DNA of 64,000 nt from Escherichia coli (GTDB taxonomy: Bacteria; Pseudomonadota; Gammaproteobacteria; Enterobacterales; Enterobacteriaceae), in the NCBI RefSeq assembly GCF_041886205.1, contig NZ_CP169029.1; one strand, 5' to 3'. How positions within the stretch are numbered: position 1 is the first letter of the stretch; each line of letters begins with the position of its first letter. The translations under genes and the position numbers were made by a program. The notes beneath the pieces were generated by a model that made no database searches, was not told the origin of the DNA, and saw nothing but the letters and a program-made list of their open reading frames with translations. Shown here piece by piece: positions 47,423 to 48,961 of the stretch.

Positions 47423-47875
47423 TTAATGTTGCGGTTTATAACGCATATAAAAATTAATAAACCACGCTCCCCGGCATTCAACGCGCTGCTGCTTAACTGT
47501 CTGAAAACCATAACGTTCAAAAAAGGGTTTTGCGGTTATGCTGGCGTCCACCGTAAGTTCGGATTCAGACTTAATCAAAGGTTTTAACAAAGCGCTGGCA
47601 ACCCCACGGCGGGTGTATTCAGGGTCAACAAATAACATATCGATATAATGTTCAATGCGGGAAATAAAACCAACCGGTTGTGCATTAATGACCGCAACCC
47701 ACACTTGTGATTTCGCGAGTTTCTCCTTCCAGCAAGATTCGTCAATCTGCGCCCAGGCGGCAATTTGTTGTGGAGAATAGTGCTGACTGGCGGTCATCGT
47801 AACCGCTCTAATAAAAATAGCGCATAGTTGCTGAAAATCGCCAGGCTGATAGTTTCTTATTTGTATGTTATTCAT
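47423..47875 (-). CDS. yafP: GNAT-family N-acetyltransferase
   Basis: 150-aa [24 protein letters not shown]...; start overlaps dinB stop (ATGA). Confidence 0.9.
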
Positions 47876-48927
47876 AATCCCAGCACCAGTTGTCTTTCCA
47901 TTTGAGGGTCAAGCAACGTCACATGCAGCCCCACCAGTCGCACACCGCGCCCACCGCGGCGTTCATCCCAGGTTTTACGCGCGGTGGCGATTAAGTCAGC
48001 TTTATTCAGCCGCGGCCAGACATGCTCCTGGGTGGTTTGCTGAAAATCGTCGAACTTTAATTTCACCCCCTGGCGAGCAATCAGTAAATCAGGTTTTACC
48101 TTTGCCAGACGGCGTTCAAGTTCCGGATACAGCCGCTCGATAATCGCTTCACATTCAGACCAGTGATGAATATCTTCCGCCATCGTGCGTTCCACGCCGA
48201 CGGATTTTCGCAACCGTTCGCTGTTAACGTCGCGCTCGTCAATCCCCTGACTACGCTCCCACAAAATGCGGCCAAATTTGCCAAAGCGTTTAAGCAGCAT
48301 CACCAGATCACACTTTTGTACATCACCGCAGGTCCGCAGCCCCATCGCTTCCAGCTTCGCCGCTGAGACTTTGCCAACACCGGGAATTTTTGCCAGCGGT
48401 AAGGTTTGCAGAAATGCCGGAACTTCCGCCGGAGTAATCACAAACTGGCCGTTGGGTTTATTCATGTCGGAGGCGATTTTGGCGAGAAACTTTACTGGTG
48501 CCACGCCCGCAGACGCCGTCAGTTGTAGCTCGTTGAAAATCGTCTGGCGGATTTCCTGGGCGATGAGGGTCGCAGAACCGTGGCAATGGACGCTGTCGGT
48601 GACATCGAGATAGGCTTCATCCAGTGACAACGGTTCAATGCGCGAGGTGTAGCGCGAGAAGATTTCACGGATATGATTTGAGGCTTCTTTGTAGGCGTCA
48701 AAGCGCCCCGGAAGCAAGGTGAGATATGGGCATAATTTGAGCGCCATCCCTGTCGGCATAGCGCTACGTACGCCAAATTTACGCGCGGGGTAATTGGCGG
48801 TGCTGATCACCCCCCGACGTTCACGGCTGCCGCCAATAGCAATAGGGATATCGCGCAGGGCGGGATTGTCGCGCATCTCCACTGCGGCGAAAAAGCAGTC
48901 CATATCCACATGAATGATTTTACGCAT
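47872..48927 (-). CDS. dinB: DNA polymerase IV (Y-family)
   Basis: 351-aa [29 protein letters not shown]... Confidence 0.96.
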
Positions 48928-48941
48928 TGCTCACCTCTCAA

Positions 48942-48961
48942 CACTGGTAAAGTATACAGTG
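48942..48961 (-). promoter_or_regulatory. LexA (SOS) box upstream of dinB
   Basis: Minus-strand CACTGTATACTTTACCAGTG contains CTGT-N8-CCAG, immediately upstream of the dinB start. Confidence 0.7.

Follow-up and report, generated by a model that had tools for sequence, protein, structure and literature searches.

The dinB operon of Escherichia coli exists in two forms, a polymorphism that was published as early as 2011. Gutierrez et al. (2011, NAR 39:4192, PMC3105422) described an ATGA-overlapped two-gene operon, dinB–yafP, in 40–50% of strains; strains of phylogroup A mostly carry four genes and those of B1 always two, and both forms occur in B2 and D. CFT073 was chosen in that study for its two-gene operon, and both mitomycin C and stationary phase induced a YafP–YFP fusion in this strain (PMC3105422). 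The YafP acetyltransferase modifies the genotoxicity of nitroaromatic compounds, and DNA polymerase IV (Pol IV), which bypasses the DNA adducts of these compounds, counteracts the resulting cytotoxicity (PMC3105422).

Both hypotheses on the direction of change are already in print. Because E. fergusonii has the four-gene operon, the 2011 study inferred loss: in its model, yafNO was removed on at least three independent occasions, each time by recombination between a pair of ATGA sequences (PMC3105422). The opposite view is that of Fraikin et al. (2020, J Bacteriol, PMC7167474), calling dinB–yafP, as found for example in UTI89, “an undisturbed bicistronic operon” and treating yafNO as an insertion into the dinB–yafP intercistronic region. 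They also discuss relA–mazEF–mazG, in which a type II toxin–antitoxin system likewise lies inside a host operon in some strains and the operon is undisturbed and bicistronic in others (PMC7167474); this is a different locus with a different toxin–antitoxin family.

The locus described here lies in a 64-kb stretch of E. coli DNA (the window), which was analysed at its full length. On its minus strand, dinB (47872..48927) encodes an intact Pol IV of 351 amino acids and yafP (47423..47875) an intact GNAT N-acetyltransferase of 150 amino acids, both assigned from the listing of open reading frames, homology to K-12 and Pfam, and yafP also from NCBIfam. DinB is 99.7% identical to its K-12 counterpart, with the single change H68Y, and its Pfam domains (IMS, E = 2e-50; IMS_HHH; IMS_C) identify it as a Y-family polymerase IV. 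YafP is 97.3% identical to K-12 YafP, with four changes; it matches the NCBIfam equivalog NF007338 along residues 1–150 of 150 (323 bits against a cut-off of 146) and carries the Pfam GNAT domains Acetyltransf_10, Acetyltransf_7 and Acetyltransf_1.

The TGA stop codon of dinB (47874..47872) and the ATG start codon of yafP (47875..47873) share one ATGA tetranucleotide, which reads tcat at 47872–47875 on the plus strand and, in the raw sequence, lies within a minus-strand ATTATGA heptamer (47872..47878). The intergenic space is zero, and the overlap holds no internal promoter, operator, terminator or spacer. Coordinates of the reading frames and the raw sequence agree on this point, as a first, sequence-only reading had claimed when it saw no room for genes between dinB and yafP; its term ‘fused’ should be read as overlapping cistrons, with no fusion protein meant. 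The same reading had given dinB–yafN–yafO–yafP as the K-12 order, which is right, and K-12 has no direct dinB–yafP junction. Searches of the whole 64-kb window with K-12 YafN and YafO (tblastn) and with the 759-bp K-12 cassette (blastn) returned neither gene, their best E values (0.24 and 0.14) belonging to short chance matches, so none had been overlooked there. A YafNO type II toxin–antitoxin system, recognized by a YafO toxin (PF13957) with an upstream PhdYeFM-type antitoxin (YafN), is thus absent from the window.

In its ATGA overlap, its absence of yafNO and its LexA-controlled promoter, the locus is like the two-gene operon of CFT073, UTI89 and all B1 strains; we found no structural difference, and the junction is one that other strains have in common. 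The locus is the LexA-controlled dinB operon in its two-gene allele, and our main reading, to which we give a probability of roughly 0.7, is that this two-gene state is the older one and does not reflect a fresh deletion.

The regulatory region is that of K-12. The 70 nucleotides 5′ of the dinB start codon, including the promoter, the LexA box and the 5′ untranslated region, are identical in K-12, base for base. Sequence reading and a promoter scan place the LexA (SOS) box CTGTATACTTTACCAG at 48944..48959 on the minus strand, where it is of the CTGT-N8-ACAG type and overlaps a −10-like TATACT (48951–48956, minus strand); a −35-like hexamer, TTCTCA (48973..48978, minus strand, from a consensus scan), sits 16 nucleotides above the TATACT. 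The box is identical in K-12 and E. marmotae, and its core, CTGTATACTT..CAG, is kept in Citrobacter amalonaticus and Kluyvera. The earlier statement that yafP remains under the LexA box upstream of dinB is borne out, as yafP lies downstream of the box and promoter that K-12 also has, and dinB and yafP would be co-transcribed on SOS induction from the one LexA-overlapped promoter. Downstream of yafP, RNA folding gives a weak hairpin followed by UUUCUUAUU (47372..47402, minus strand), a possible end of the operon; its folding energy of −13.2 kcal/mol is not significant (z-score −1.56), and a scan of the minus strand 3′ of yafP called no terminator.

ATGA overlaps are a standard context for termination–reinitiation coupling. 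As the yafP start lacks a well-spaced Shine–Dalgarno sequence (a GGGA ends 2 nucleotides before the AUG), yafP is probably translated by such coupling at the AUGA. In K-12, yafP starts 9 nucleotides after the yafO stop codon and is also without a clear Shine–Dalgarno sequence. The lack of a well-spaced Shine–Dalgarno sequence would also suit a DinB–YafP fusion protein, or YafP made by frameshifting at the end of dinB, and ‘translational frameshifting’ is the wording used by Gutierrez et al. (PMC3105422). Three points speak against such products: the overlap supplies yafP with an ATG of its own, and the protein matches K-12 YafP from its first residue onwards; the overlap is itself of the kind at which reinitiation ordinarily occurs; and in Citrobacter and Kluyvera, a TAA plus 2–5 nucleotides keeps dinB and yafP apart, with yafP again at its own ATG. 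Because yafP keeps its own start codon in every species examined, the frameshifting wording is unnecessary, and we consider a fused or frameshifted product very improbable. In this strain, SOS-induced Pol IV and YafP would come without YafO, a ribosome-dependent mRNA interferase, and without its antitoxin.

Comparison with other E. coli genomes, which the sequence-only reading had proposed as a check, shows that this is an ordinary allele, one of two that are about equally common in the species. A 1.6-kb locus probe matched 5,416 of 5,426 complete genomes. The two-gene junction, called with a 120-nucleotide probe centred on the junction and matched over at least 80% of its length in one piece, occurs in 2,569 of the 5,426 (47%), at 97.5–100% identity, and every two-gene genome found has one and the same junction. 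The yafNO region, probed with the 755-bp K-12 segment from the dinB stop to the yafP start, is present in 2,847 genomes (52%), only 16 of which match less than 80% of the cassette. With 47% of complete genomes lacking yafNO, K-12 is not the species norm at dinB. Beyond correct annotation, the two-gene locus by itself matters little.

These counts also bear on whether the junction could be an assembly error, or whether yafNO might simply have moved elsewhere in the genome. Our inspection covered 64 kb of the genome, which leaves room for a copy at another site; however, the two classes add up to exactly 5,416, the number of genomes with the locus, so they are essentially complementary and second copies of yafNO must be rare. 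The same junction recurs in 2,569 complete genomes, and the region is 99.96–100% identical between the window and two complete genomes. Artefact or relocation is therefore the least credible of the explanations weighed here. The dinB–yafP haplotype of the window is itself rare, reaching at least 99% identity in 2 of 5,424 records; the closest record belongs to wlxctx60, a strain from an Asian black bear, and for the rest of the window 6EVA is an equally good match.

The K-12 operon differs from that of the window by 759 bp of extra DNA with a GC content of 41.8% (dinB, 54%). This cassette comprises a 51-nucleotide AT-rich promoter/operator region, yafN, yafO and a 9-nucleotide spacer. Its left edge follows directly on the dinB stop codon (TGA, then TGTATAC...), and its right edge reads ...TATATTATGA, the ATG in which is the yafP start. 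A transposon or terminal-inverted-repeat structure was considered for the cassette and rejected, the 759 bp being filled by the promoter region, yafN and yafO. A search of plasmids for a donor of YafO identified none: the matches of at least 99% identity, K-12 plasmid records among them, resemble copies of yafO from the chromosome, and of the others one reached 73% and the rest were below 40%.

In four-gene operons of the K-12 type, a 7-bp direct repeat, ATTATGA, lies on both sides of the 759-bp cassette. Such a repeat is expected of a target-site duplication and equally of a slippage deletion, so on its own it gives no direction, and because a precise deletion between its copies could recreate exactly the junction of the window, the junction sequence alone cannot separate a retained allele from a precise deletion. 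The principal alternative to our reading, the model of Gutierrez et al., builds on this repeat: the four-gene operon would be ancestral in Escherichia, and the cassette would have been deleted between the two ATTATGA copies, which flank it exactly, by recombination or replication slippage. The repeats themselves offer a counter-argument. A third copy, in the dinB–yafN spacer of K-12, shares 8 bp (TATTATGA) with the yafP start, and slippage is expected to be no harder at this pair than at the 7-bp one, but the product of the 8-bp deletion was found in 0 of 5,426 complete genomes. Recurrent loss also has to account for the single junction of the two-gene class, given that clearly secondary deletions at this locus have other junctions and are rare, the yafO-deleted form occurring in three genomes.

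That yafO-deleted form is a third allele, dinB–yafN–yafP, in which yafO is deleted after its eighth codon at a TTAT microhomology and an orphan antitoxin is left. Its carriers are Escherichia sp. E1V33 and, among the complete E. coli genomes, GF43, MEI003 and OZ282453, with coordinates L003:3960-4012 and L026:1911-1963 among the loci that we recovered. In the divergent ‘E. coli’ SCPM-O-B-8794 (L002:3593-3988), a glutamine codon of yafO has become a stop 13 codons before the end of the gene, and yafO of strain 1409 (L016:6477-6875) is annotated with an internal stop. Inactivation of the toxin with the antitoxin kept seems to recur.

Loci outside E. coli, which we reached through homologues of YafP, provide a more direct view of the direction of change; E. 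fergusonii, E. albertii and an E. coli representative were not among the loci recovered in this way. In E. marmotae, dinB and yafP share an ATGA overlap, and in Escherichia sp. MOD1-EC7003 the junction is identical to that of the window. The dinB gene ends in TAA and is followed by yafP after 5 nucleotides in C. amalonaticus and after 2 nucleotides in Kluyvera sichuanensis, K. intermedia and two further enterobacteria (L024 and L025); on a short Escherichia-like contig (L028), dinB is directly upstream of yafP. Neither yafN nor yafO is present at the dinB–yafP locus of E. marmotae, MOD1-EC7003, C. amalonaticus, Kluyvera, L024, L025 or L028, and in all of these outgroups the two genes are adjacent within a syntenic dinB–yafP–(rtcB–prfH)–pepD–gpt–frsA–crl locus.

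Two other loci were recovered. One, the short contig L027, counts on the side of an older four-gene state: it has the 3′ end of yafO upstream of yafP with a spacer like that of L029, described below, and a YafP that is 71–73% identical to E. coli YafP; L027 may be E. fergusonii-like and L028 E. albertii-like. The other (L022) comes from a genome full of frameshifts and is uninformative. In Klebsiella, the neighbourhoods of a related yafN–yafO pair (YafO 69% identical) are unrelated and vary, which speaks for mobility of the family.

The four-gene operon is likewise found beyond typical E. coli, in E. whittamii and the divergent ‘E. coli’ L002, and, according to the 2011 study, in E. fergusonii (PMC3105422). 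It also occurs in a human-gut enterobacterium recovered from Chinese and Hadza metagenomes (L029 and L030), the only non-Escherichia case seen, where the order is nqr–dinB–yafN–yafO–yafP–pepD (L029:2597-4858, and the same coordinates in L030) and the nqr operon lies upstream of dinB as in Kluyvera. Amino-acid identities to K-12 are 91.5% for DinB, 83.5% for YafN and 84.8% for YafO. The left boundary of the cassette is that of K-12 (TGA, then TGTATAC), but the right junction differs (TTTTTAA AGAGAACGACAAATC ATG) and has no 7-bp repeat. From K-12, this cassette has diverged about as far as its flanks have, with dS saturated, so either the insertion is old, or the site was entered twice, or the cassette moved across genera long ago. 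The presence of four genes in E. whittamii, L002 and E. fergusonii, together with the old cassette of the distant L029, speaks for an ancestral four-gene operon that was later precisely lost; set against it, of the seven lineages examined outside E. coli and E. whittamii, all but L029 have dinB followed directly by yafP.

How much weight the sister species can bear depends on the age of the cassette within Escherichia. Seven four-gene loci were compared, namely five from E. coli, that of E. whittamii and the divergent L002; their mean dS is 0.22 in dinB and 0.14 in yafP, but 0.12 in yafN and 0.043 in yafO. Between E. coli and E. whittamii, 4–5 of 89 four-fold sites differ in the cassette, compared with 47–55 of about 228 in the flanks (p = 2e-5 to 7e-4), so that between Escherichia species the cassette is 4–5 times less diverged at such sites than the genes on either side of it, which argues against loss from an ancestral four-gene operon. 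Constraint on synonymous sites was considered as a cause of the low divergence of yafO and rejected, as dS of yafO is saturated against the distant homologue in L029. The cassette thus coalesces far later than its flanking genes, which implies that it moved between Escherichia lineages after their divergence, and exchange of this kind makes its presence in sister species weak evidence for ancestry.

Within E. coli, the two- and four-gene states are fully interspersed on local neighbour-joining trees, and divergence between the two classes equals divergence within them. Over the last 300 bp of dinB, four-gene S88 and two-gene CUVET17-1136 do not differ at a single position. The haplotype of the window is mosaic, the 3′ half of its dinB being closest to four-gene O157:H7 and the 5′ part of its yafP closest to the two-gene strain 0H23. 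That both allele types sit on near-identical local haplotypes can be counted in favour of precise loss; near-identical flanks and mosaicism are what homologous recombination would leave if it exchanged alleles either way, and they also fit occasional precise deletion.

Taking these lines together, we consider the loss of an ancestral cassette between the ATTATGA repeats unlikely as an account of the polymorphism, and likewise a precise deletion somewhere in the ancestry of this particular strain. The sequence-only reading had left open whether the direct junction is ancestral or the product of a precise loss; the evidence leans towards the ancestral state and does not close the question. The two-gene arrangement is probably the older state of the dinB locus, and would be its default in Enterobacteriaceae. 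The yafNO module would then be a cassette complete in itself, comprising a promoter region, an antitoxin and a toxin, that entered the operon between dinB and yafP; homologous recombination would later have passed it from one Escherichia lineage to another. The allele of this strain may never have held the cassette, or may have been re-acquired by recombination from an allele that never did.

The data suggest that the loss direction proposed in 2011 is probably wrong and that the insertion view of the 2020 review is right. With somewhat less confidence than we attach to the age of the two-gene state, we favour the stronger statement that the published inference of an ancestral four-gene operon with at least three losses is the wrong way round, that the ancestral enterobacterial operon was dinB–yafP with its cistrons overlapping or abutting, that the cassette spread among Escherichia species and phylogroups once these had diverged, and that the polymorphism is an old insertion/no-insertion difference shuffled by recombination, not recurrent deletion. 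If the insertion view is right, the locus is a clean example of a toxin–antitoxin cassette in a host operon that has spread by homologous recombination. The mildly new element of our analysis is the quantitative support for insertion over loss; nothing else in it is new.

Around dinB, E. coli genomes are a patchwork of segments that some strains have and others lack. Directly upstream of dinB, at 48998–51467, the window has the same Flag-2 (lateral flagella) deletion scar as K-12, in which lafU adjoins a truncated lfhA. The Flag-2 cluster (fliK, fliL, fliA-like, motA and lafU) is intact before dinB in the two-gene strains 2010C_5028 and CUVET17-1136 and in E. marmotae. Just downstream of yafP, the window carries intact rtcB (379 amino acids) and prfH (204 amino acids) genes on the minus strand (45427–47204), of which K-12 and O157:H7 have only truncated remnants (the ykfJ and prfH pseudogenes). 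As intact rtcB–prfH also follows yafP in E. marmotae and L024, this looks like the older state.

Other toxin–antitoxin modules of the neighbourhood vary as well. Between yafL (52461–53216) and dpaA (53508–54245), the interval 53217–53507 of the window holds no dinJ–yafQ, a pair that O157:H7, WG5, WAT, strain 1409 and others carry at this position, and tblastn found no match to DinJ, YafQ, HicA or HicB in the window; this strain therefore also lacks the second toxin–antitoxin module of the neighbourhood. The rayT gene is present in the window, and some other strains have hicAB in its place. At 51470–51784, a stretch just downstream of rayT in wlxctx60 is matched twice, in overlapping segments of about 220 bp and at 86% identity, which indicates tandem REP-like repeats next to rayT.

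Further from dinB, a two-gene ABC-three-component module adjoins tRNA-Thr(CGT) (37459–37534) within the interval 35211–37534. It encodes a 326-amino-acid protein with SMEK_N and CTD10 domains (36225–37205, minus strand) and an 83-amino-acid MC6 protein (36005–36256, minus strand), followed by an IS1 (35211–35940). Strain wlxctx60, otherwise near-identical, has about 12 kb of other content at this tRNA-Thr, including an integrase remnant, an Mn-catalase gene, a LysR-family gene and fdeC. In the prp/yah region, ARAGORN calls an 81-nucleotide tRNA-Ser(GGA) on the minus strand (8591–8671), which may be a false positive.
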